Below are positions 1,182-17,287 of a stretch of DNA of 32,000 nucleotides, one piece after another. The first letter of the stretch is position 1. The number at the start of each line of letters is the position of its first letter. Source of the DNA: an archaeon (GTDB taxonomy: Archaea > Asgardarchaeota > Thorarchaeia > Thorarchaeales > Thorarchaeaceae); contig JAJRZD010000114.1 of assembly GCA_024275415.1 (NCBI GenBank), positions 30,001-62,000 on the forward strand, read 5' to 3'. The notes under the pieces are model-generated. The model ran no database searches. It was not told the origin of the DNA and was given only the letters and a program-made list of their open reading frames with translations. The position numbers were made by a program, and so were the translations under genes.

Positions 1182-1385
1182 AGGAACACCTCCAATGGTA
1201 TGCTTCGCGGAAAAGTTCTTGCCTTTAACAGTTATGTTTTGTCGTCCATTGCAGGTCAGACATGGTATGATTTTTCCTACGAAGTATTAGGAATTCATAT
1301 GCAGCGTCTTGTGCAGACTGGTCTGTGGGTTTAGCAAGAAGAACTACTTACAGTCTATTCTTATAATAATATATCCAACTTATTT

Positions 1386-1393
1386 TTTATATA
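1386..1393. promoter_or_regulatory. Archaeal TATA box (TTTATATA) in the divergent intergenic region
   Basis: TTTATATA lies ~43 bp upstream of ATG 1436 in an AT-rich tract. Confidence 0.5.
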
Positions 1394-1435
1394 AACAAGC
1401 ATAGTTATAGGCATCTTGACGACTGTACTACAGAA

Positions 1436-2080
1436 ATGCGATCTTGTCTACCACAGGAAGACCTTGAACAGGTCATCGCACTAGTATTGGCTGGGCTACG
1501 CGAATCCACTATACGTTGGTTTGACGAAGCGAATCTAACGAGAGATGATACCATACATGTCATCGAACTTGTCTTAAGACGACTTGACAAGCATTGGATT
1601 GAACGAAAAATACCTCTAACGGTGATATACGTGGCAGCACGTATCATTGAAGAGGTTGTAGAGCGATTTGAGGACGAGAATGGTAAGGACTCGGCAAAGA
1701 TTGGGACTGTTGTCATCGGGACCATGAGCGAGGACTTCCACTCTTTGGGGAAGAACCTTGTAAGGCGAACGCTCATGCCTTTTTTCCATGTCCATGATCT
1801 AGGCGTGAATGTCGATATAGACCGGTTCATCTCCTGTGCTAAAGAGCATGACGCAGACATCATCGCTGTTTCAGCATTGATGATGAATTCAGTTCTTCAG
1901 CTGCAATCACTCCGCAATGCGATTGATGATACTTCATGGAAAAAGAAACCTAAACTCATTGTAGGAGGAGCCCCTTTCACAATTGACTCTGAGTTGCACA
2001 AATATACCGGTGCTGATGCATATGCACCAAATGCAATCGTTGTGGCAGAGAGATGTATGGCACTCATGGATGTGAAATAA
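1436..2080 (+). CDS. Corrinoid (cobalamin B12-binding) protein, MtbC/MttC-like, with cap domain
   Basis: DxHxxG motif (EDFHSLGKNLV), plus DLGVNV, SALM and VGGAP motifs and an N-terminal helical cap. Confidence 0.92.
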   Translation: MRSCLPQEDLEQVIALVLAGLRESTIRWFDEANLTRDDTIHVIELVLRRLDKHWIERKIPLTVIYVAARIIEEVVERFEDENGKDSAKIGTVVIGTMSEDFHSLGKNLVRRTLMPFFHVHDLGVNVDIDRFISCAKEHDADIIAVSALMMNSVLQLQSLRNAIDDTSWKKKPKLIVGGAPFTIDSELHKYTGADAYAPNAIVVAERCMALMDVK

Positions 2081-2081
2081 A

Positions 2082-3098
2082 TTGAAGCCTATAGAACGAG
2101 TCCTCAAAGCGTTGGAATTCGAGGAACCTGACAAAGTCCCTCTCTGGCTGTTGATGACAGCGCGAGGGGCCACGGAGCTAGGACTTTCAATTTCACAGTA
2201 CTTTAGCAGTGCCAGTAATATTGTCAAAGGTCAACTGTTCCTGCAGGAAAAATACAATCACGATTGTGTCTATGCATTCTTTTATGCGGCAAAGGAGTAT
2301 GAAGCATTCGGAGGTATGTCCATGCAAAAGACCAGTGGGCCTCCTGAGTCGGGCCGGCCTATCTTCTCATCAGCAGAGGAGATTCTAGCAGCTGAATTGC
2401 CGGATATCGATCACGAAGCATTTTCAATCATCCATGAAACTCATAGAATGCTTAACAATGAAGTTTCTACTTGGTTGCCAATACTGAGTAATGTAGTCGC
2501 CCCGCTTTCTCTTGTTGTGATGCTTGTTGGCTTTGAGAAGTGGATTGAATGTATCATTGACACCCCAGAGATTGCACGTCAGGTCGTGGAATACCTTACA
2601 GACCATTCTATCGATCTGTCAAACCGATATTTCGAGGATGGCGTAGCTGGTTTAGGTTATTTCAATCCTGTGGCCTCGGGTCATATCTTAAAAATCGAAG
2701 AATACAAGGATATTGCGCTTCAATCAGATAAACGGTACTTCAGCTCAATTCATGGACTGGCTGCATACGCGCTTGCGGGGAGTCGTTGCGAATCATTGCT
2801 ACCAACTCTTGTTAAGGATGTAAAGGCCCGAGCTGTATTTGTGTCAAGCCAGGATGACCTTGCATCTATCAAGAAGGAATACGGGCGAAATGTGGTTCTT
2901 ATTGGAAACCTGAATAATATCTCGATGACTCATTGGGACGAAGAAACGGCCGATAATGAAGTAAAGAATTGCATTATGGCGGGTGCGAATGGTGGAGGGT
3001 TCATACTGGCTGACCATCATGGGGACATCTCATCGAGTGTCCCTCAAAAGGTAATCCAGCAGATAGAGAGGGCTCGGAATAAATGGGGAACATATTGA
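2082..3098 (+). CDS. Uroporphyrinogen decarboxylase / MtaA-CmuA superfamily protein (divergent)
   Basis: N-terminal ERVLKAL..EEPDKVP, LSNVVAPLSL..MLVGFE, IGNL and GGGFILA segments; 338 aa. TTG start 1 bp after the corrinoid gene stop. Confidence 0.85.
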   Translation: MKPIERVLKALEFEEPDKVPLWLLMTARGATELGLSISQYFSSASNIVKGQLFLQEKYNHDCVYAFFYAAKEYEAFGGMSMQKTSGPPESGRPIFSSAEEILAAELPDIDHEAFSIIHETHRMLNNEVSTWLPILSNVVAPLSLVVMLVGFEKWIECIIDTPEIARQVVEYLTDHSIDLSNRYFEDGVAGLGYFNPVASGHILKIEEYKDIALQSDKRYFSSIHGLAAYALAGSRCESLLPTLVKDVKARAVFVSSQDDLASIKKEYGRNVVLIGNLNNISMTHWDEETADNEVKNCIMAGANGGGFILADHHGDISSSVPQKVIQQIERARNKWGTY

Positions 3099-4357
3099 TG
3101 GAGCCAGACAACAAACATACCCGCAGACCTGTTAGCGGGAAATCTGATGAGAACCTTGATGAGCTCAGGCAGAACTCAGCAAAATACGCACTCATCCAAT
3201 ATGTTCTTGGTAGTATTGTTGAACACTCCAAACCCGAGGAGTCGCTTGCACTTATCTTGCAGGAGATAGCCACTCTAACGGCAGGGAAACTCCGATTGTT
3301 TGTCGAGATACACAAGGGCATCTGGGAAGGATTTTCACTGGAACACTATGAGAAACATCGTTCATGGCTTTCAAGGTATCTAATAGATGAAGACCTCTAT
3401 TCTGCTGTCACAAGATTTGGCGATGTCATCTATTATCGAAACTTGCCAGAAAGAAACAGGATATCAGAAGATATCAGACAGCACCTCGTCAAATCACAGG
3501 CGGAGTCGTTAGTGCTGGTACTGCTTCGGGGAAAGCCAAACATTGTCATTGAGGTTCAAGACTTCATCATCCCTGACCGGGCTGATCGGTACCTTGAGGC
3601 GATAAGGGAATTTGTACTCCCCCTGAAGCTGTCGTTACATCATACAATCCTATTGGAAGAGAGCGAGCGTGCGCGCAGACGTGCAGATCTCCTTCTCGAC
3701 CTCCTTTTTCATGACATTAGGAATTCACTCAACAACATGCAGGTTTCCCTTGAGCTGTTGGAAATGCGATGGGACGACAAACAGCGGTCTCGGGAGAACC
3801 TTCTACAAGCAATGGACTGCTCCAGAACCGCAAATAGGTTGCTAGACCGAGTGAAACGAATTCTCACCATGATGCCAAAGGATGATTTATCGTCGTATGA
3901 CCTCTGCACTGTATTCGAAACCTGTGTCGCAACAGTACGAGCGAATCACAGGGACATCACGACTGACATAGCATTCCCACGCCCTTCTACATGCCAGATA
4001 AAGGTGCTTGGAAACGATTTGATATACGACCTCTTTGAGAATTTGCTTTCTAATGCCGTGAAGGCGATGAAAGGAAAGGTAGGAAAAATCACTATAGAGG
4101 CAGATGTATGGGACATCAATCCAGCGTTTGCACATATCAAAATAATCGATCAGGGCTCAGGAATGCCTGAGAAAATAAGGCCTCAAGTGGCTGGCCGGTT
4201 CCTTACGGAGAGCACAAGTGGCATAGGACTGGGGTTAAGCATCGTGATGCGAATTCTCGAGGAAATAGATGGGTACCTTTGGTATGAGAACAGGGTTCCC
4301 GATGACATATCAAAAGGCACCATAGCAAATGTCGCGTTGCGAATTGACCGCAAATGA
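3098..4357 (+). CDS. Soluble sensor histidine kinase (GAF-like input, HisKA, HATPase)
   Basis: H-box FHDIRNSL, N-box NLLSNAVKA, G1 DQGSGM, G2 GIGLGLSIV. No TM segment. ATG 3098 overlaps the upstream TGA (TGATG). Confidence 0.92.
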   Translation: MEPDNKHTRRPVSGKSDENLDELRQNSAKYALIQYVLGSIVEHSKPEESLALILQEIATLTAGKLRLFVEIHKGIWEGFSLEHYEKHRSWLSRYLIDEDLYSAVTRFGDVIYYRNLPERNRISEDIRQHLVKSQAESLVLVLLRGKPNIVIEVQDFIIPDRADRYLEAIREFVLPLKLSLHHTILLEESERARRRADLLLDLLFHDIRNSLNNMQVSLELLEMRWDDKQRSRENLLQAMDCSRTANRLLDRVKRILTMMPKDDLSSYDLCTVFETCVATVRANHRDITTDIAFPRPSTCQIKVLGNDLIYDLFENLLSNAVKAMKGKVGKITIEADVWDINPAFAHIKIIDQGSGMPEKIRPQVAGRFLTESTSGIGLGLSIVMRILEEIDGYLWYENRVPDDISKGTIANVALRIDRK

Positions 4358-4498
4358 GCCAAATGCTAGTTATCGGTCGCTAAATAGGAACTCGGATACA
4401 ATTGAGTGTGAGGGGTTCAAACAGCTGCGCTACACGTACCCAAACTCGGGCATCTCTTAGATGGCATTCAAAGTAATTTACAGGGCTTTATAGACTCG

Positions 4499-4526
4499 AT
4501 CACTCTCATAGGAGTATGAGGGTGAT
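4499..4526 (+). other. 12-bp stem-loop (ATCACTCTCATA-GGAG-TATGAGGGTGAT)
   Basis: Inverted repeat with a single G.T pair, in the intergenic region between the kinase and S-component genes. Confidence 0.45.
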
Positions 4527-4693: not shown

Positions 4694-5461
4694 ATGAGTG
4701 AAAATGACAGCCTTGACCTCACCTATGCTGAGGGTCATTCGGACACAATTCTATTTGCCATAGGAGCTATACTGGCGGCGCTCTATGGCGTGGGCTCTTT
4801 AATTCCAATCAGCGTCTTTCTTGGTGCCACAGCAACCATAAGCCTGACCTTGCTGATCGCCCCGCTTTTCGGAATCCTGTTAGGTCCATGGAAAGGTTCA
4901 TTCTTCGGGCTTGTTGGTGGACTGACAGCGTTTGTTATTGGCGGATCTGGCGGGTTGTACCAGCTCATCCCCTTTCTCTTCCTATCGCCAGCTATCTCCG
5001 GACTTTTGACAGGACTTGTAGCACATCCGAAACAAGGAGATATCAGGTTCCCAGGAGGACTATTCACGGCAGCATATCTTTCAATCATCATCGTCCTTTA
5101 TGAGGTCGTGAACTATGAGGGGTGGTGGTTCATGCTCTACTATATGGTCGCCGTGGTCGTTGCGCTGGTCGTTCAAATCACTGGTATTGAGTTGCGATTT
5201 GAAGAGGTACGAGATAACCGGATTACCAAGCTTGTCCTGTTTGCGATAATTGGGACGATGACTGACTTTTCCCTGATGACGATGGGTGCAGTGTATATCA
5301 TGGGACTTGAGCCACTCCTGTTCGGGTTCGTGATATTCCCAGCCATGCTGATAGAACGCACTGCTGCTATCATTATCAGTGTGATTATCACAACGGCAGT
5401 GATCAAGGCATTCCCAGAAGTTTGGGGATCTAACCAAGTGCCTTCAAAATCAGCCTCATAG
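4694..5461 (+). CDS. Polytopic membrane protein, ECF transporter S-component-like
   Basis: Several hydrophobic helices. AALY...IAPLFGILLGPWKG..GLVGG pattern typical of S components. SD GAGGT upstream. Confidence 0.65.
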   Translation: MSENDSLDLTYAEGHSDTILFAIGAILAALYGVGSLIPISVFLGATATISLTLLIAPLFGILLGPWKGSFFGLVGGLTAFVIGGSGGLYQLIPFLFLSPAISGLLTGLVAHPKQGDIRFPGGLFTAAYLSIIIVLYEVVNYEGWWFMLYYMVAVVVALVVQITGIELRFEEVRDNRITKLVLFAIIGTMTDFSLMTMGAVYIMGLEPLLFGFVIFPAMLIERTAAIIISVIITTAVIKAFPEVWGSNQVPSKSAS

Positions 5462-8145: not shown

Positions 8146-8406
8146 ATGGCAGGTAAGACCAAGCTCTTCAAGGGGCTCACAGAACATGATATCCTAACAT
8201 GGGAAGAGGAGAAGATGCGATTCCAGAGAAGAGTAGGTCAGAAGGTCACCGATCTGCAATTCTTACGGCACCTGCTCATGGTCGCCTCACGACCTGTGAT
8301 ATCTGGAAAGGACGGGGTTTCGAAAGGATTCCTCTCTGGGAACGGACCGATATACGACAAAGCTGATACGTTATTGGAGAAATATCGTTCAAGAACTCCA
8401 CCCTGA
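8146..8406 (+). CDS. Small hypothetical protein, possibly antitoxin/RHH-like DNA-binding
   Basis: 86-aa ORF from ATG 8146 with an SD-like GAAGTGA. Charged helical composition. The family call is inference only. Confidence 0.5.
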   Translation: MAGKTKLFKGLTEHDILTWEEEKMRFQRRVGQKVTDLQFLRHLLMVASRPVISGKDGVSKGFLSGNGPIYDKADTLLEKYRSRTPP

Positions 8407-8510
8407 GAGGGAAGTCATATCTGATCAGGGATATGCACAACTCTCAAAGCTTATATACCATTTATTCACTAGAATCTAGTGACCAACTATTCACTAGAGG
8501 AACACCAACT

Positions 8511-8666
8511 ATGTACATGAGCAGTGAGATACATTTTGAAGATGAAGAATCTACAAAGCGATCCAACATTGGTGATAACCAACAAGGATTCTGGTTCGAT
8601 GCTGGTCTTTATCGGGAATGGCTTGTATTTCTCCATGAGATATGGCAATCAGTCGAGTATCTTTAA
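8511..8666 (+). CDS. Possible small hypothetical protein
   Basis: Short ORF (MYMSSEIHFEDEE...EYL) filling the gap before ArsR on the same strand. No recognised motif. Confidence 0.25.
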   Translation: MYMSSEIHFEDEESTKRSNIGDNQQGFWFDAGLYREWLVFLHEIWQSVEYL

Positions 8667-8709
8667 GAGAAAAGAACAAGGCACAATGACTCGATAAGAT
8701 CAATGTAAG

Positions 8710-9402
8710 GTGATGATGATGAAGGGCTCATCGAGAGATTCCGATTATTTGGACACGATTTTCAAGGCACTCGGACATATCACTCGAAGAAGAATACTCA
8801 GACTATTAGCCCAGAGACCTCATTATCCTTATGAGCTAAGCAAGACTCTTGGATTCACTTCAAGAGTCATTATCAAGCATCTGGAAGTACTTGAGAACGC
8901 GGGAATCGTTGAAACCGAAGCAGGTGAACGGAGCCTAGGACCTGAGAGGACGTACTACAAGCTCCGTGCAGGGTTCGGTCTTTCCACCACCATCCTCCCC
9001 AATTCCTTTGCGGTTCATCTACGTCCCAATACAAGGATAACTACCATCCGAGCAAGAATATCGCTTCCTCCTGTCCGCAACGATGTCCGTGCGGTCAAGA
9101 TATTGCTGAATGAACTCAGGAAGATTGACCGACAAATTACCGCTCTTGAGGAAAAACGCCTTCAGCTGATGAACCATCGGGGACTGATCATCCAGAAGAT
9201 TGAGAACATCATGGAGAACTGTTCATGGGATGAAGAGAGCTGTAGATTGATACGGAGTCATATCAATCCTGTAGATACAGGGAATGATGTCAGCGATGAG
9301 AAGCCGATCGAGAAAGTGTTGGACATTTTTGAAAAACGGTTCTCAGGGAAAGCCAGTAAAAAGAAGGACGATAAACAAGAAGTCCGGATTGAGTTCGATT
9401 AG
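8710..9402 (+). CDS. ArsR-family winged-helix transcriptional regulator with C-terminal coiled coil
   Basis: IFKALGHITRRRILRLL...ELSKTLG...IIKHLEVLENAGIV; RTYY wing; heptad region. Confidence 0.9.
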   Translation: MMMMKGSSRDSDYLDTIFKALGHITRRRILRLLAQRPHYPYELSKTLGFTSRVIIKHLEVLENAGIVETEAGERSLGPERTYYKLRAGFGLSTTILPNSFAVHLRPNTRITTIRARISLPPVRNDVRAVKILLNELRKIDRQITALEEKRLQLMNHRGLIIQKIENIMENCSWDEESCRLIRSHINPVDTGNDVSDEKPIEKVLDIFEKRFSGKASKKKDDKQEVRIEFD

Positions 9403-9403
9403 T

Positions 9404-10084
9404 CTACCAGTTGAGTTTGATTCTCCATTGGCTCCGATCCGTGCCTTGCATACTTGGGACGTATTCGATGGGGTTGTATGGCATATCAATTCCAGTGGAT
9501 TTCTTTATCATTAGGTAGTGTTTTCCCCGTGCAGTGGTCAAAGTGATGATTCCTTGTGCCAGGGAGAACAGCTGATTCATTGTGACAGAATCAGCAGTGT
9601 CAGAATGGATGAGATAGAACTCTATTGAACCCGTCTTGATGCTTTCCTCCACGCTTTCCTTGAAGAACTGCACAACATCCCGTGGAGTGAAATCGATGAG
9701 GAGAGGCGTCAGAGCCTCAAATGTGACAACATTGGGAGAGAGCATGTTCCTTAGGCTTCGCATCATGATATTGATCTCGTGGAGATGAGGCGAACAAGTA
9801 TGGTTGCCAAGTGTTTTTTGTCCGTAATTGACTTCAAGGATATGGAACGAATCGCTCTGCAGTCTGGTCATGTGTTCCATGAGCTGTCGGTTTCTTGCCT
9901 CAGTCACGACATTCAAGGTCTTCATCCCGTTCTCCAATGCGCTGTGGATTAGGGTAGACATGAACAGGTCATAATGGCTTTCTTGTGACGCCATAACTAG
10001 ATAGACATAGCCATTAGGAGGTTTGACCAGTAGACGGTCAACTATGGAAGGGGCCATCTCATTATTCAGGGATACTCCCGTCAT
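9404..10084 (-). CDS. Degenerate RecA/RAD55/KaiC-like domain protein (no Walker A)
   Basis: VTFEALTPLL, LFSLAQGIITL and YLMIKKSTG resemble the KaiC-domain C-terminal half. No GxxxxGK[ST]. SD GAGGT upstream. Confidence 0.65.
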   Translation of the reverse strand: MTGVSLNNEMAPSIVDRLLVKPPNGYVYLVMASQESHYDLFMSTLIHSALENGMKTLNVVTEARNRQLMEHMTRLQSDSFHILEVNYGQKTLGNHTCSPHLHEINIMMRSLRNMLSPNVVTFEALTPLLIDFTPRDVVQFFKESVEESIKTGSIEFYLIHSDTADSVTMNQLFSLAQGIITLTTARGKHYLMIKKSTGIDMPYNPIEYVPSMQGTDRSQWRIKLNW

Positions 10085-10098
10085 CTAGTGATTACCTC

Positions 10099-10470
10099 TT
10101 ACTCCTCAAGTCCAAGATGTTTTCTTATAGTCGCAACCAATGCCTTTCCTGAAAAAGGCTTAACAATATATTCGTCTGCACCGGCTTCCTTTCCTTCCTT
10201 GATGTCCTTTGTAAGCCCTTTCGCTGTGAACATGATGATGGGGATTGTCTTGAACTCATCCCTAGCCTTCAGACGCCGGCATACTTCAAACCCATCGATC
10301 TTTGGCAGCATCACATCCAGCAATATCAAGTCCGGCTTATTTTCAATGGCAATGTCAAACGCTGCTTCACCGTCATATGCACAGATGACTTGAAACCCAT
10401 GCTTCTCCAGGAACCTCTTTGCCAGTTCGGTCGTTATTTCCTCGTCATCAACGACTAGTATCTTTTTCAC
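10099..10470 (-). CDS. Stand-alone response regulator receiver (CheY-like), canonical
   Basis: VVDD, LLD (phospho-Asp), FTA and KPF are all intact. Probable GTG start at 10470 (the ORF track starts at 10488). Confidence 0.95.
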   Translation of the reverse strand: MKKILVVDDEEITTELAKRFLEKHGFQVICAYDGEAAFDIAIENKPDLILLDVMLPKIDGFEVCRRLKARDEFKTIPIIMFTAKGLTKDIKEGKEAGADEYIVKPFSGKALVATIRKHLGLEE

Positions 10471-10480
10471 ATCAGTTTCC

Positions 10481-11866
10481 TCACACAATTGGCATCAATT
10501 CGTAGTCCAAGAACCCTCCTGAGAGCAGTTGCCGGATAGCAAGATAGTTCGTTCTAGGCGAAACCCCACAGATGCTTAACACTCCACATATCTCCTGTAC
10601 TCGCAAGTGAATGTTATGCGAGATTGACTCACTGCGAATCCCCTGCTCCCGACTGAGGATTGCGATGGTCGTACGGTTGGTCGATGAAAGCGCAGTAGAC
10701 ATCTCAGCCAGCAGCCCTCTGACAACATTAGCTCCGTACATGTTCTCAAGCGTGTCCAGTGCAAAGAGCTCCGTGACTTCCTGATTGAACTTCCGTTCGA
10801 GCACATCTACCTCATACCTGATCTCTTGCAATGTCTTTAACGGATCCAAGTCCAGGTTCCTCGAGTTCGGATATGTCCCAATAGATTGCCTTCCGAAGAA
10901 GACCACTCGTTCGTCCACATGGCTCCTATCGATGAACTGTGTCAGGCTCTTGCTGAACGTTTCAGGAGACCAGCCTTCGGGAAGTAGAATCACTGCTGAG
11001 CGCCCCTGCTGTAAATGGTTCGATAGAAATGGGATATAAATGGTTTCCAGATAGGGAACTGATAAGTCATCCACCTCGATTAGCGTGACCTTGCCCTTTG
11101 GGAACCCACCAGACAAGAGTTTGTCCAAGCTTTCATTCCCGGTGGAGATGTACGCACTGGAGGGGTCTGGTATTGGTTCTCGCTCAACAGTGATTGCGGG
11201 GTATTCATGCTGGTACCATGGTAGGTATGTGAAACGCCCTTCGTGCAACGTGAACAGGTACGAGTCCTGATTGACAGGGTGCGCGCGCATCTTGTCGATG
11301 ATTGCCTGTCGATACATCCGCTGCCCATCACGGATCTTTTCTAGCTGGATGATCCCATCCGCAGAGTGTAATAATGAGAGTTCGTGCTCACCTTTCATTC
11401 CCTTTTCAACAATCAGAATCAGCTTCTTCATTTCTCGCCGTGCAGCATGGATCAGGGCTTGCTGAATGGAATACATCTTAGATGGCTCTAGCATATGCAT
11501 GAAATCAGACCATGAGTCAATGATGACGATCTCAGACTGGGGAATATCCTGTGATGAGTTCACCAATACACTGAGAGCTTCATGCAGGGAATCGATATCA
11601 GTTGGAATCTGTTCCATCCGTTGTCCATAATGCATCCGAAAACGCCGTTCACTCCAGTTAGGAACATCCTTTGATAGGCAAAAGTCCACGGCACTGATGT
11701 TCTCCGCACTCGTGATTATGATCTGCGAGTCAGGATAGTTTCTTATGAGCTCATGTGCAAACAAGGACTTTCCCGTGCCCGGTAGACCACGTACAACTAG
11801 GACATAGCCGTGTTCTTCTGATAGTACCTCTTTGATGCTAGGAGGCAATCCACCAGTTGTACTCAT
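10481..11866 (-). CDS. Two-domain KaiC/RAD55 ATPase, GvpD-like (N domain intact, C domain degenerate)
   Basis: GLPGTGKS, IIDSW, SADGIIQL and KMR in domain 1. Domain 2 starts STGNESLDKLLSGGFPKG but lacks the Walker A GKS. Confidence 0.85.
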   Translation of the reverse strand: MSTTGGLPPSIKEVLSEEHGYVLVVRGLPGTGKSLFAHELIRNYPDSQIIITSAENISAVDFCLSKDVPNWSERRFRMHYGQRMEQIPTDIDSLHEALSVLVNSSQDIPQSEIVIIDSWSDFMHMLEPSKMYSIQQALIHAARREMKKLILIVEKGMKGEHELSLLHSADGIIQLEKIRDGQRMYRQAIIDKMRAHPVNQDSYLFTLHEGRFTYLPWYQHEYPAITVEREPIPDPSSAYISTGNESLDKLLSGGFPKGKVTLIEVDDLSVPYLETIYIPFLSNHLQQGRSAVILLPEGWSPETFSKSLTQFIDRSHVDERVVFFGRQSIGTYPNSRNLDLDPLKTLQEIRYEVDVLERKFNQEVTELFALDTLENMYGANVVRGLLAEMSTALSSTNRTTIAILSREQGIRSESISHNIHLRVQEICGVLSICGVSPRTNYLAIRQLLSGGFLDYELMPIV

Positions 11867-11958
11867 GCAATGATCCCCTGTCAGAATCCCTTTTTTCTTT
11901 ACGACTTATATACATAAGTGGGGTCTTGATTCTGTGTAATCGTATCGAATGAGCAGCT

Positions 11959-13560
11959 CTATTTAGAGATTCTTTGTAGAAACTCAATAAAATACGGGCA
12001 CAATGAGCCTTTCCAGAATAGATTGCCCATACATCCCGTACGTGAAATATCTCTTACAACACGACATTCGAAATTCCTTTCACAGTTAAAGAATATGCAC
12101 TGATCACTCGTAACGGACTCGTCTTGAAGTATCCTTGCTCGTAGAGATTGCATCGGTTTGCTATCTGAACTGTTGACCCACAAGTCTGGGCTACCAAGCT
12201 GCTCACGCACCAACTCTATCTCGCTATCTTCGACTGGTTCTGCAATTGCCAGCTTAGTAACAATCAAGCTGACACGAGTATTGAAGGCATCAATGTAGTC
12301 GTTTGCATCCTCGGCATACTTCAACGCTTCAGCGTGATTTAGGAGAGATTCCTCGTATCTCTCTTGCATGAAATAGGTGTCTGCAATTTGGGATGTCACA
12401 ATGGCCCTGGCATCTTTCATCCCAGAACAGGTAAGTATTCTTTTGCATTCATGGTAGTACTGCAAGGCCTTTTCAAAATCCCCTCGTTGGAATGCCACAT
12501 CGCCTAAATTGACCGTTGCAAAGGCGATTCCACGCATGTACTCGGCTTCTTGGCTGATCTCCAGCGCTCGACGATTGTAGGATTCCATCTGATCGAACTG
12601 ACCGAGACCTCTGTCAATCTCACCTACATTAATCAACGTCCGAGCGAGACCTATCTCATTGTTGAGTTGCTGTTGTATCAGGAGGATGTCCTCAAAATGG
12701 TCGCGCGCCTCTTGATGGAACCCACATTCCAACAGGAGTACTCCGAGAAGATTCTTGGCATCTGCAAGTCCTTCAAGATATCCCATTCGCTCATAGCGTC
12801 GAATTGCTTCCCGAGCTATATCCATCGCCCGCTCGTATTCTTTTGACTTGTGAAGTACCATCGCCCGGAGATAGAAGACATCAGTCTGGGCAAGTCTATG
12901 GTCTAGCACTCTTGCAGTTTCCTCTGCGGAGTCAAGTCGTACCAATGCTTCTTCATGGGCTCTCCGTTGGATGTCGACATATGCCATCTGGATCCTAGCC
13001 CGCAGAAGAGCTGCCTGCACCTTGGAACGAATTTCAACGGTCTTTGCAGTTTCTTTTGTAACTTTCTCTATCCCTTCGGATGCCGTTTCCTTTGCCTTGT
13101 CTGTGTATCCGAGATAGGCGAGGATATATGCAAGCTGACCAGAGAGCTCCGCAAATCCGATATAATCCTTTGACTGCCATGCCTGATTTACGTATGTCCT
13201 GAGGTTGTTCACCCAACGTGGGTCTAGGCGTTGCCTGCAATACGCAGCTGCTGCATAACCCCTGCACATGATATTATCAGTACCCTTTGCAAGAACCTGA
13301 TTGTATCCATACATCCCCCTCAAATATGCCGCTTTCGCACACATCGATAGGAACCCTTCACTCAGGTTATACCATTCTCCAGCACCTATATACTCCAGAA
13401 GGACATCAGTGAAAATCATGAATCTGTCCTTTCCAATCCTGTTGCTCACTGAAAGATGCCGGACTATCTCATCTTGTTCAGATTCTGTAATCCGGTCCTC
13501 ATACATCGCGAACTCCGGGATTATGGGATTGTCCGTCAATTTTCCTCTACTCTCAAGCAT
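11959..13560 (-). CDS. Tetratricopeptide-repeat protein with Cys-rich C-terminal tail
   Basis: Repeated TPR units (GLADAKNLLG, GLARTLINVGEI, GIAFATVNLGDV). Start at ATG 13560 or 13506; the track's 13821 start overlaps the opposite-strand ATPase. Confidence 0.85.
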   Translation of the reverse strand: MLESRGKLTDNPIIPEFAMYEDRITESEQDEIVRHLSVSNRIGKDRFMIFTDVLLEYIGAGEWYNLSEGFLSMCAKAAYLRGMYGYNQVLAKGTDNIMCRGYAAAAYCRQRLDPRWVNNLRTYVNQAWQSKDYIGFAELSGQLAYILAYLGYTDKAKETASEGIEKVTKETAKTVEIRSKVQAALLRARIQMAYVDIQRRAHEEALVRLDSAEETARVLDHRLAQTDVFYLRAMVLHKSKEYERAMDIAREAIRRYERMGYLEGLADAKNLLGVLLLECGFHQEARDHFEDILLIQQQLNNEIGLARTLINVGEIDRGLGQFDQMESYNRRALEISQEAEYMRGIAFATVNLGDVAFQRGDFEKALQYYHECKRILTCSGMKDARAIVTSQIADTYFMQERYEESLLNHAEALKYAEDANDYIDAFNTRVSLIVTKLAIAEPVEDSEIELVREQLGSPDLWVNSSDSKPMQSLRARILQDESVTSDQCIFFNCERNFECRVVRDISRTGCMGNLFWKGSLCPYFIEFLQRISK

Positions 13561-13692
13561 TTCTGGAAAGAACCCAGATTCAAACCCGTACACAGGAATC
13601 AAAAGCGTTCTAGTGATTCCTTTCGCATGAACATAGGCAAGCAAATAAGTAATATATTTGAAGCTATGATGAATTAGGACTGAGAGGATGCA

Positions 13693-14448
13693 ATGGCGAA
13701 AGAGAGAATCAGCAGCGGAATTCAGGGGCTGGATCAGATACTTAATGGCGGCTACATCAAAGGACGCTCCATGCTCATTGCAGGGGGTCCTGGAACCGGC
13801 AAGAGCATCATCGCATGGCATTTCATCTTCGACGCGATAGATAATGGAGAAAGTGCAATCCTTCTCTCACTCGATGAGCCATCAGACCTTATCATAGACG
13901 ACATGAAATCCTTCGGTTGGGATCCAGAGAAGGCCATATCGGATGGCAGGCTTACAATCCTTAGCGGCACGCTCAAGCTGGTGCCTTCAGGTTCGGGATA
14001 CTAGTATCTGATATCTTTCGAACATCCCCTATTCAGAGAGAAACCATTCACCATACCCCGACTGGCTGAACTGGTCAAGCAAAAGGCTGCTGAAACCAAG
14101 GCATCTCGGATTGTCGTCGATGGACTAGCACCCTTACTAGAGTTTGCAGGGAGCCGGTTTGAGATACGGCAAACAGTCTATACCTTCATGAGAGAGTTGA
14201 TATCCCATGATTCCACAGTCCTTCTCACCCACGAGCTGAGGACCCTCAGTGGATCTCAGAACGACGAGATGCCCTACTTCATCTCTGATGGCGTCATAAA
14301 GCTGGACACTCTGTATGCAACCGGCGATTACATTCGGACACTACGTATTGTAAAGCTGCGTGGGACTAACCATTCGATGAAGCCTGCCATGTTCAGGATA
14401 CAGGATGATGGCGTCGCTGTCTTCCCTGAAGCTAGAATACCTGAATGA
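13693..14448 (+). pseudogene. Single-domain KaiC/RAD55-like ATPase interrupted by an in-frame TAG at 14002-14004 (nonsense allele, read error or read-through)
   Basis: ORFs 13693..14004 and 14188..14448 are in the same frame, and the intervening sequence is open and encodes Walker B RIVVDG. Joined product is 251 aa with GGPGTGKS, SDGVIKL and KLRG. Confidence 0.85.
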
Positions 14449-14449
14449 A

Positions 14450-14818
14450 TCATAGGACAGGCTGCACTTTTCTCATCAGGTCGATCAGGTCAAACATTGA
14501 GAAAGGCTTGAGTAAGAACCCTCTGGCTCCCGCGAAGAAGACCTGGTCGCTGGAATCGTCCACAAATTCCGCCATGGCAATAATCGAGATGTGTGCATCG
14601 ATGTCAAGAATCTTCTCAATCGTTCGCATTTGCTCGGACTCTGATATCGAGAGATCAAGTAGCACAATTCCGACCTTATGACTGCTGCAATAGGCTAAGA
14701 GGTCTTCCTCAGTGTCCGGCTCTCCAACCACCGTGTACCCTGCCTCTTCTACAGCCATCCGAACCAACGACCTCAGAAGTGGAACATCACCAGCTATTAC
14801 AACATTCAAAGGATTCAC
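14450..14818 (-). CDS. Stand-alone receiver domain, atypical
   Basis: Receiver fold with LLD and KPF, but AGD replaces DD and Ala occupies the switch Ser/Thr position (IIAMAE). Confidence 0.85.
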   Translation of the reverse strand: MNPLNVVIAGDVPLLRSLVRMAVEEAGYTVVGEPDTEEDLLAYCSSHKVGIVLLDLSISESEQMRTIEKILDIDAHISIIAMAEFVDDSSDQVFFAGARGFLLKPFSMFDLIDLMRKVQPVL

Positions 14819-14863
14819 CTTTCAAGTGCCTGAATAGTACCACATCTGTAACACATTAATGGT

Positions 14864-15226
14864 TTACTCTGACACAGCGGTTTCAATCAGATCCAGCATA
14901 TGCCGAATCGTGACAGGTTTGAGACCAAAACTAACCGCACCACCCTTCATTGCCTCTTCTCTGACGTTCGCATCTGCACTGATGAACACAATCTTCGCGT
15001 TCGGCTCGATCTCTAAAAGTTCCTTCATAGCCTCCAGCCCATCCTTGTTAGGCATGCGATGGTCGAGGATGAGAACGTCTGGCTTTGGCTCCATCTCTCG
15101 ATATTTCTGCACGGCTTCCTCTCCATCAAAGGCATCTGCGACCACTTCATGCCCCTTGATCGCAAATACGTCCTTGTAAAGCCTGTGAAGAATCGGTTCG
15201 TCATCGATTATGAATATGGATACCAT
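14864..15226 (-). CDS. Stand-alone response regulator receiver (CheY-like), canonical
   Basis: IIDD, LILDHRMP..DG, ISA and KP. Confidence 0.95.
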   Translation of the reverse strand: MVSIFIIDDEPILHRLYKDVFAIKGHEVVADAFDGEEAVQKYREMEPKPDVLILDHRMPNKDGLEAMKELLEIEPNAKIVFISADANVREEAMKGGAVSFGLKPVTIRHMLDLIETAVSE

Positions 15227-16186: not shown

Positions 16187-16609
16187 TCAAAAATCAAGGA
16201 TATCTATGCCAGATCCGTTCAATGCAGTGCCCAGTTCCGTAATGAACTTCTTGGACTCATTCAGATGGTCAAAAACCACGTTTTTGATTGTTATAAAATC
16301 GACCTCGCCATACCTATAGAGTATCATATTCCTCAATCTTGTTGCTTGTTTCATATTCATAGCTGTTTCAGAGGTGATCAAAGACCTTTGTGCTAAGATC
16401 TTGAATGCATTAGAGCAAGTATCCGGAGTTTCCCCTCCAAGTCTTCCTAGCACCTTTAGGGTCAAGTCGATTGTGCCTTGAATAGATGAATACAAATTCC
16501 ATAGTACAAAGGATTGAAGTCTAGAATCCTGGCTTAATGAAGCAACATCAATGTCCCTTACTTCTTCCAGTCGGTCTAGTGATTGGGTGATTAGATTGAT
16601 CAATGCCAA
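16187..16609 (-). CDS. hepT: HEPN / DUF86 toxin (HepT-like) with catalytic His replaced by Tyr
   Basis: DUF86 pattern (LYSSIQGTIDL...NAFKILAQ). The motif reads RNMILYRY rather than RX4HXY. Coupled to the upstream MNT gene. Confidence 0.8.
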   Translation of the reverse strand: MALINLITQSLDRLEEVRDIDVASLSQDSRLQSFVLWNLYSSIQGTIDLTLKVLGRLGGETPDTCSNAFKILAQRSLITSETAMNMKQATRLRNMILYRYGEVDFITIKNVVFDHLNESKKFITELGTALNGSGIDILDF

Positions 16610-16988
16610 GACGTTTCCTCACAGCTTGTTTGTATATCTCAAATGAGTCTTTAAAGTCAAGCCCTTCAATCAAAGCATTCGTGTAGAATTCAGTATGTAC
16701 CTTATTGCTTCTAGTGAATAGCAGAATGCCTTCAGAAACCACCTTCAACTTAAGAAGTGGAGGGGCATGATTGAGAATAACAAGATCCACATTGTCGCCA
16801 ACAACATCTGAGGTGGAATTCAAGATATCGATGAATTTCCCTGAAGTGTATTCATCTAAGAATACCGCAACATCAACATCACTGAATGGATGTGTCTGGT
16901 TTCTTGCTACAGATCCGAATAGATATGCGAATACTACATGCTCGTTCTTTTTCAGCTCTGCACGCAATGTTACAGCAATGTCGACCAT
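16548..16988 (-). CDS. mntA: Minimal nucleotidyltransferase antitoxin (MntA-like)
   Basis: AYLFGS-X10-DVD motif, VDLVILN and PPLLK. Probable ATG 16988. Confidence 0.9.
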   Translation of the reverse strand: MVDIAVTLRAELKKNEHVVFAYLFGSVARNQTHPFSDVDVAVFLDEYTSGKFIDILNSTSDVVGDNVDLVILNHAPPLLKLKVVSEGILLFTRSNKVHTEFYTNALIEGLDFKDSFEIYKQAVRKRLGIDQSNHPITRPTGRSKGH

Positions 16989-17287
16989 TGTCACACATCT
17001 ATCAGGAGATGATAGATTTGACACAAATAAGTCCGAGCTATCGAAATCGACCATTGTACTCATGACAGTGGTCTGAGGTTCAAGGCCGACACATGAGACC
17101 ATTGACAACTAGGGATACGGTTCGCAAAGGAAATGAGTGCGTTGACGGTGGTCTAAGTCTGATATATGGCGGTGAAAGACATAATGCCCGTATTACATCA
17201 TCTAAAATATTTGTATGGTGTCGTCAGTGTGGGGAAATACTGCTAAACTGTTATTGATCCGAAAGGGATCCAAAACCTCACTACTGA

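Follow-up and report, generated by a model that had tools for sequence, protein, structure and literature searches.

Three coupled genes for a corrinoid protein, a URO-D-like protein and a soluble histidine kinase in an Asgard archaeon: the minimal form of a widespread cassette and a possible cobamide-based signal input

Layout of the three genes

We analyzed a window of 32,000 nucleotides (positions 30001-62000 of contig JAJRZD010000114.1, here C100 of genome G000) from an Asgard archaeon with a 3.5 Mb, 92.9% complete genome. The best protein matches of the window come from metagenome-assembled genomes (MAGs) labelled Thor-, Loki-, Odin- and Hodarchaeal. At issue are three consecutive genes, hereafter the triad, that encode a corrinoid protein, a protein of the uroporphyrinogen decarboxylase (URO-D)/MtaA fold and a soluble histidine kinase; the first two are referred to as the pair. 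The elements of the triad are as follows.

1383..1395, plus strand: AT-rich TATA-like element, candidate archaeal promoter of the operon
1436..2080, plus strand: corrinoid protein gene, 214 amino acids (aa), PF02310 match
2082..3098, plus strand: URO-D/MtaA-fold protein gene, 338 aa, TTG start, PF01208 match
3098..4357, plus strand: gene for a soluble histidine kinase lacking a receiver domain, 419 aa (424 aa from the ATG at 3083)
3134..3607, plus strand: GAF-fold input domain of the kinase, residues ~13-170 (AlphaFold2 (AF2) model, pLDDT 82.7)
3614..3865, plus strand: DHp helices of the kinase with phospho-acceptor His205 (codon 3710-3712); helices 173-223 and 228-256 of the model
3890..4345, plus strand: catalytic ATP-binding domain of the kinase, with conserved N, G1 and G2 boxes (orthologue alignment; HATPase_c)

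An earlier reading of this DNA, which we call the original prediction, described junctions consisting of a 1-bp gap and a TGATG overlap, and reading the sequence bears this out. The stop codon of the corrinoid protein gene (TAA, 2078-2080) is separated by one base pair from the TTG at 2082 that starts the URO-D-like gene; this start is credible because the product opens as the family consensus MxPxERV. The stop codon of the URO-D-like gene (TGA, 3096-3098) overlaps the kinase ATG (3098-3100). With the alternative kinase ATG at 3083 the overlap becomes 16 bp, and the overlaps in relatives range from 1 to 16 bp. The TATA-like element, read from the sequence ~45 bp 5' of the first start codon, is a candidate promoter for all three genes; a look-up of public sequencing runs for 1300-4500 listed none.

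A corrinoid protein with an intact cobamide site

The corrinoid protein matches PF02310 with 65.9 bits (gathering cut-off 32.1) and is built from a helical cap and a Rossmann B12-binding domain; its top sequence match in the PDB is 1y80 (E 5e-21). The motifs D100-F-H102-S-L-G105 (DxHxxG), S146-A-L148 (SxL) and G177-G178 (GG) are invariant in 29 corrinoid proteins of the cassette described below, as are cap residues, and the lower ligand His102 is encoded by codon 1739-1741. The protein scores far under the NCBIfam equivalog cut-offs for MtbC (77.5, cut-off 350), MtgC (75.6, cut-off 370) and MtaC (31.9, cut-off 420). It has no transmembrane-like segment, the maxima of the KD19 scan being 1.22 for this protein and 1.24 for the kinase.

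A URO-D-like partner that lost the zinc site

Residues 3-331 of the second protein match PF01208, the URO-D TIM-barrel family, with 137.4 bits. It remains under the cut-offs of the MtaA/MtbA-type models PRK06252 (95.1, cut-off 244), TIGR01463 (70.2, cut-off 235.4), MtaA (66.7, cut-off 400) and MtbA (57, cut-off 600), and under that of the equivalog for uroporphyrinogen decarboxylase itself (HemE, TIGR01464; 25.4 bits, cut-off 302.95). The nearest PDB entry is M. mazei MtaA (4ay7, E 3e-6), whose His-x-Cys zinc motif (LHICG) aligns to YALAG in the URO-D-like protein. In MtaA/MtbA enzymes these two residues, together with a distal Cys, ligate the zinc by which the thiol acceptor is activated. This alignment is validated by a paralogue from the same genome (on contig C21), which retains YHSCG at this place. 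Across 108 related proteins, the zinc Cys position is Ala (Ala232 in the window's protein) in 107, and the His of the motif is retained in 82 and gone from the Asgard clade. Having lost the zinc site, the URO-D-like protein is not an MtaA-type zinc thiol methylase.

The remainder of the barrel is strongly conserved. Q51, N276 and H313 are present in all 108 sequences and D61 in nearly all, with 28 positions conserved at 93% or above. Conservation of this kind points to a constrained barrel that is probably an active enzyme, and the protein appears to belong to a zinc-less 'sensor-type' subfamily. In an unrooted tree of the 108 proteins it groups with other cassette members. The proteins of its own Asgard family (f1) form a monophyletic clade with support 100 and a long stem, which is not part of the main clade (86 rows).

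The URO-D-like gene is disrupted near codons 31-35 in the nearest relative of the locus (L001, 5900-6010; also G347:C150, L109). There the first 30 residues lie in another frame, one TGA falls within the match and the gene call comprises 305 aa only, the cause being either a misassembly or gene decay at an early stage.

A cytoplasmic kinase with a GAF domain as sole input

The third gene had been predicted to encode a cytoplasmic kinase without a receiver, and this description holds: Pfam finds no receiver domain and the KD19 scan no transmembrane-like segment. HATPase_c matches residues 313-419 of the 424-aa form with 65 bits. The HisKA match (21.2 bits) is under its cut-off of 26.9, and the AF2 model (pLDDT 75) contains two long DHp helices. 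In the alignment of orthologues the H-box (H205, D206, I207, R208) is invariant, and N315, N319, D351-G353-G355 and G377-G379 are nearly so.

Pfam returns nothing, including no GAF match, for the ~190 residues at the kinase N-terminus. By structure this region is a GAF domain, the sole input domain of the kinase. It superposes on PDE2A GAF-B (VIA-align Z 14.6, 154 aa, root-mean-square deviation 2.9), dozens of further GAF domains match at Z above 9, and Foldseek retrieves phosphodiesterase (PDE) and phytochrome GAFs. Among 10 orthologues, M1, L23, Y35, G63, W76, F172 and P175 are invariant in residues 1-190, and no Cys or His is conserved there, which makes a covalently bound heme, as in the Methanosarcina kinase MsmS, unlikely.

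This type of GAF is rare. An exhaustive profile search of 1.84 billion proteins retrieved 16 cluster representatives, 15 of which match the architecture of the kinase (389-433 aa, or truncated where the contig ends), the other being 186 aa long; a word-index search with the GAF region found one relative only. A complex prediction for the corrinoid protein, the URO-D-like protein and the kinase GAF, each entered with its alignment, gave a score of 0.01 and a mark of 0.32, which speaks neither for nor against binding.

Conservation of the triad within one Asgard family

Close homologues of the 338-aa protein, 44-58% identical, come from Asgard MAGs. All 10 loci of the window's Asgard family that have enough DNA retain the triad; its genes overlap, and the genes around it differ. 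The order of B12 gene, URO-D-like gene and orthologous kinase recurs in L001, L002, L004, L005, L008 and L088-L091, and the junctions are overlaps of 1-16 bp, with a 33-bp gap in one locus. The GAF type of the kinase occurs in 9 of 400 Asgard species genomes, all from this one family. The five strong matches (G000, G328, G318, G347 and G387) are exactly the carriers of the f1-clade URO-D-like gene. The Asgard form is thus limited to 5 of 86 species of the family, within which the pair and the kinase co-occur exactly.

Several features vary around these loci. Large NosD/beta-helix proteins are encoded 5' of the triad in L001 (2084-5110), L002 (1825-4029) and L004 (1-939), and not in the window. 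More distant pairs in the Asgard families f18, f19, f21 and f22 (L113-L125) are followed by PAS-only proteins of 297-369 aa rather than by a kinase, or alternatively by proteins of ~256 aa and ~110 aa with no Pfam match. In some other Asgard families the pair precedes DUF1638-HisKA proteins.

A widespread cassette with a constant pair and interchangeable outputs

A degenerate-pattern scan of species genomes of bacteria and archaea retrieved at least 370 relatives of the URO-D-like protein with 35-41% identity. The carriers include Desulfobacterota, Bacteroidota, Chloroflexota, Nitrospirota, Pseudomonadota (Methylococcaceae, Comamonadaceae and Thiotrichaceae), cable bacteria, Methanosarcinaceae, Methanomassiliicoccaceae and others. 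For the neighbourhood counts we kept 80 loci, with 74 open reading frames (ORFs) immediately downstream of the pair. A B12-binding gene lies directly 5' of the URO-D-like gene in nearly all 80, mostly with a 4-bp overlap. The 74 downstream ORFs contain DUF1638 (54), HATPase_c (38), HisKA (25), GGDEF (13), PAS (~12) and receiver (7) domains, and one GAF-like region is common to 63 of them. Since the arrangement recurs in more than 80 independent loci, it is far beyond chance, and a constant two-protein front end combined with interchangeable outputs is the signature of a sensory input module.

The original prediction proposed surveying the neighbourhoods of 338-aa homologues for linkage to kinases, and the survey came out in its favour: the pair precedes a signalling protein at nearly every locus. 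Methylotrophy operons without kinases, which would have spoken against it, are not the setting of the homologues; the pattern is instead a corrinoid gene 5' and a kinase, GGDEF or PAS protein 3'. In ~90 loci we found no MT1, MT2 or transporter gene conserved beside the pair.

Bacterial versions of the cassette carry DUF1638 as a fusion with the output protein. This domain is genetically required together with the corrinoid subunit of a split methionine synthase and tracks RamA-like activators (PMC5764234; PMC12478193). In profile comparisons, residues 15-418 of the Asgard kinase align to positions 222-610 of the bacterial DUF1638-GAF-kinases, which covers GAF and kinase core and not DUF1638; the Asgard N-terminus has no similarity to the DUF1638 part (E 0.37). 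PF07796 (DUF1638) has no match in the Asgard genome at E<=1. Likewise, a cassette-specific DUF1638 hidden Markov model finds nothing in the 10 Asgard loci or in the six-frame translated genome, and does match in 65 other loci. DUF1638 is missing from some bacterial loci as well (L009, L026 and others). The domain is therefore frequent yet dispensable, and the constant core consists of the corrinoid protein, the URO-D-like protein and the GAF domain. We conclude that the window carries a minimal, DUF1638-less Asgard form of a widespread and conserved cassette. The literature that we searched, with most subscription journals outside its scope, held no account of this cassette.

Candidate receivers

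The orphan receivers that the original prediction placed downstream of the triad are there: three, all on the minus strand and 5.7 to 10.9 kb away.

14864..15226, minus strand: receiver 'RR-A', candidate phospho-acceptor, 82% identical to the receiver 63 bp past the kinase in L088
14450..14818, minus strand: receiver 'RR-B', candidate phospho-acceptor, 50% identical to the second receiver past the kinase in L088
10099..10488, minus strand: third stand-alone receiver, a weaker candidate that overlaps a KaiC-like ATPase gene (PF00072, 106.5 bits; 39% partial match to the L088 receivers)

L088 comes from a related MAG in which the URO-D-like protein is 47% identical. There the kinase gene is followed, after 63 bp, by genes for two receivers, a KaiC-like protein, a TPR protein and another KaiC-like protein. 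The block has matches in the window to both receivers (14864-15226, 82%; 14450-14818, 50%), to the TPR gene (50%) and to a 461-aa KaiC-like gene; the window therefore carries the same block, inverted, ~10 kb away. The blocks of receivers, KaiC-like ATPases and TPR gene (9404-15226 in the window, 7315-11023 in L088) are collinear once inverted. One KaiC-like frame of the window (13693-14448, plus strand, 251 codons) has a single in-frame stop at codon 104 and is open on both sides of it; its L088 counterpart (8189-8941) is an intact 250-aa gene.

We considered RR-A as a dedicated partner of the kinase and rejected it in this role. It adjoins the kinase in one related locus only, lies ~11 kb from it in two close relatives and is on another contig in two others. 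Moreover, 59 of 86 family genomes have RR-A, with or without the triad (itself present in 5), so that RR-A is a core receiver rather than a dedicated partner; it is a conserved core signalling hub of the family. The predicted output through the nearby receivers is accordingly weakly supported: L088 places two orthologues directly past the kinase, whereas RR-A is a core gene. The receivers are plausible candidates for this route. The genome as a whole contains ~20 receiver-domain matches (19 distinct proteins) and ~30 HATPase_c matches.

Other genes around the triad

The immediate neighbours of the triad encode an FAD oxidoreductase (opposite strand), an 8-TM (eight-transmembrane) protein, a pyroglutamyl peptidase, LysE, DUF389 and ArsR. 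No helix-turn-helix (HTH) domain was found by Pfam in the three proteins, and the nearest HTH gene, ArsR (8710-9402), is separated from them by four unrelated genes. Scans of the window found neither a B12 riboswitch nor any other Rfam family, and no tRNA.

The 8-TM membrane protein (4694-5461, plus strand) begins 336 bp past the kinase and is conserved in the nearest relative L001 only (61%). A PF07155 match below cut-off (E 5.6e-5; ECF S-components of riboflavin type) led us to consider this ORF as the S-component of a cobamide ECF transporter. We rejected it because NCBIfam gives no match and conservation extends to L001 only. A nucleotidyltransferase/HepT toxin-antitoxin pair lies at 16187-17108 (minus strand), and a similar pair is found directly 3' of the orthologous kinase in L090 (6609-7440).

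Corrinoid metabolism elsewhere in the genome

No MttB, MtaB, MtrH or RACo/RamA gene was found on the contig of the triad. The original prediction had noted that no substrate-specific methyltransferase or corrinoid activator stands beside the triad. This is right for the entire contig as far as these families go, but the URO-D-fold enzyme may itself be substrate-specific. In bacterial O-demethylases, the substrate-specific methyltransferase can have the URO-D fold. Other contigs encode one MttB-superfamily protein, three MtrH-like proteins, two RACo activators and a canonical corrinoid protein, so that a reductive activase (RACo/RamA) is available in trans. On one of them (C67, 16647-20459) the genes for a RACo/RamA-type activator (542-aa frame; ferredoxin-like Cys cluster at the N-terminus) and for an MtrH-like methyltransferase are ~2 kb apart. 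These two genes are probably part of the metabolic corrinoid system of the genome.

A proposed cobamide-state input and its alternatives

We lean towards a reading in which the pair is the input of the kinase: the cobamide state would be set by the URO-D-like enzyme together with an activase acting in trans, read by the GAF domain and reported by the kinase. The three genes would form one operon encoding a cytoplasmic sensor. The corrinoid protein would hold its cobamide base-off/His-on, and the zinc-less URO-D-like protein, as a dedicated partner, would dock on the cobamide in the manner of MtaA on MtaC; it would methylate or demethylate the cobalt, or set the cobalt state in some other way. 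The resulting states could be apo or holo, and Co(I), Co(II) or methyl-Co(III), and would also depend on the ATP-dependent reductive activase encoded elsewhere. By reading the cobamide state, the GAF domain would switch autophosphorylation at His205, and the phosphoryl group would then pass to one or more stand-alone receivers. We infer the physical coupling of the proteins, the identity of the signal and the partner receiver; the signal sensed may be a methyl donor, a very low redox potential or the supply of cobamide.

The recurrent linkage to signalling proteins and the fact that the same 5 of 86 species have both the pair and the kinase argue for the part of the original prediction in which the pair is an input module; the receiver route is its weak side. 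That the methylation or redox state of the corrinoid would control the kinase, as also proposed, is a conjecture. Several findings weigh against a sensory role for the pair. The MttB-like, MtrH-like and RACo proteins encoded elsewhere would allow a metabolic role for the pair. Remote relatives of the kinase exist without the pair (L093 and four weak matches in the genus g16), and 9 of the 10 family loci have no linked, dedicated response regulator. Once the kinase core is excluded, the similarity between the Asgard GAF and that of the bacterial cassettes is weak (E 6e-5; 1.6e-5 with 79% probability over 67 columns).

The pair could instead be a metabolic methyl-transfer pair whose methyltransferase is encoded elsewhere, the kinase being a co-transcribed regulator with a GAF that senses an independent ligand. 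The corrinoid genes on other contigs, including the canonical corrinoid protein, fit such a role, and GAF domains usually bind small ligands themselves. There is also precedent in Methanosarcina, where MsmS, RdmS and MA4377 control the corrinoid/methyltransferase fusion genes mtsD/F/H (bioRxiv 10.1101/2021.03.04.434021). We nevertheless consider a metabolic pair unlikely, since the zinc site for MtaA-type thiol methylation is missing and no MT1, MT2 or transporter is conserved near the pair. In addition, one constant pair is combined with kinase, GGDEF or PAS-only outputs, an unusual pattern for an operon-specific regulator, and the hosts include taxa without known corrinoid methylotrophy (Bacteroidales, Comamonadaceae, Methylococcaceae and cable bacteria).

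Two further alternatives keep the sensory role and change the signal. If the cassette reported cobamide supply, the holo and apo forms of the corrinoid protein would engage the kinase differently, with the URO-D-like protein as a loading or holding partner. The strict conservation of the cobamide-binding motifs and the loss of the catalytic zinc site suit this idea, and AerR, which acts with CrtJ, is a known stand-alone B12 protein controlling a separate regulator. A TIM barrel with 28 positions conserved at >=93% (n = 108) resembles an active enzyme more than a chaperone, and we judge supply sensing improbable. The output would in that case adjust cobamide uptake, salvage or B12-dependent metabolism, yet the surveyed loci show no conserved cobamide transport or salvage genes nearby, and the window has no B12 riboswitch. 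Sensing of light, with photolysis of an alkyl-cobamide switching the kinase and the URO-D-like protein re-alkylating the cofactor in the dark, could draw on the CarH/LitR photoreceptors and on other B12-binding domains linked to signalling proteins (PMC8717448). We give it very little credence, as most carriers are anaerobes that live in the dark (sediment Asgard archaea, methanogens, sulfate reducers and cable bacteria), the operon has no MerR-type DNA-binding domain or photoglobin, and no known photoreceptor has a methyltransferase partner.

Returning to the cobamide-state input, the function of the cassette as judged from its architecture would be the conversion of cobamide chemistry into a signal, probably by a route from B12 to cellular signalling that has not been described before. 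That it defines a new class of cytoplasmic signal input, in which URO-D-fold methylation or Co(I)/Co(II) redox chemistry gates a GAF-linked output, is a tentative proposal to which we assign slightly less than even chances. If it is true, corrinoid proteins would be, beyond methyl carriers and light sensors, the sensing element of widespread two-component and cyclic di-GMP inputs, in a family that spans anaerobes, cable bacteria, methanogens and Asgard archaea. It would also open a way to study how such cells sense their supply of methyl groups, deep reducing power or cobamide status, for which, to our knowledge, no sensor has been established. The DUF1638-less Asgard form would show that a corrinoid protein, a URO-D-like enzyme and a GAF domain are the minimal working core, and it suggests that the signal is read by the GAF and not by DUF1638. 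Because it is minimal, comprising three soluble proteins with one GAF input and lacking DUF1638, this form is a clean target for reconstitution.

Comparison with known systems

The closest metabolic counterparts are the MtaC/MtaA and MtbC/MtbA pairs of methanogens (MtaA structure 4ay7/4ay8), in which, as in the triad, a ~210-aa DxHxxG corrinoid protein stands beside a ~340-aa partner of the URO-D fold. In contrast to MtaC/MtaA, the pair of the window lacks the His-x-Cys ligands and falls under every curated cut-off, has no adjacent partner of MtaB, MttB or MtmB type, and in nearly all relatives is followed by a third gene for a signalling protein.

The Methanosarcina kinases MsmS, RdmS and MA4377 are likewise archaeal, soluble and equipped with a GAF input, and they are genetically associated with corrinoid/URO-D-type methyltransferase genes. 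MsmS senses through a heme bound covalently to a GAF cysteine, which has no counterpart in the window's GAF, where no Cys or His is conserved. Kinases of the MsmS type act on the transcription of separate metabolic genes via Msr factors and, unlike the kinase of the triad, are not translationally coupled to them.

A B12-binding domain is also the sensing element in CarH/LitR and in AerR/PpaA-CrtJ, where AerR is a stand-alone B12 protein that controls the separate regulator CrtJ. CarH/LitR and AerR/PpaA do not have a methyltransferase-fold partner or a histidine kinase/GGDEF output of the cassette type, and the light signal of CarH/LitR is unlikely for the hosts of the cassette. B12-binding domains linked to signalling have been surveyed (PMC8717448).

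The DUF1638 systems offer another comparison: the split methionine synthase of Phaeobacter inhibens combines DUF1638 with a corrinoid protein, as does the bacterial form of the cassette (PMC5764234), whereas the Asgard form has no DUF1638 in its operon or elsewhere in its 92.9% complete genome.

In mode of action, the cassette is proposed to resemble the H-NOX sensors. There, a separate cofactor protein encoded directly 5' of its histidine kinase gates that cytoplasmic kinase, for which no further signal input is obvious. The cassette differs in that it would use a cobamide instead of heme and has an obligatory, enzyme-like second component; its kinase also retains a GAF domain, presumably the module for docking and reading.

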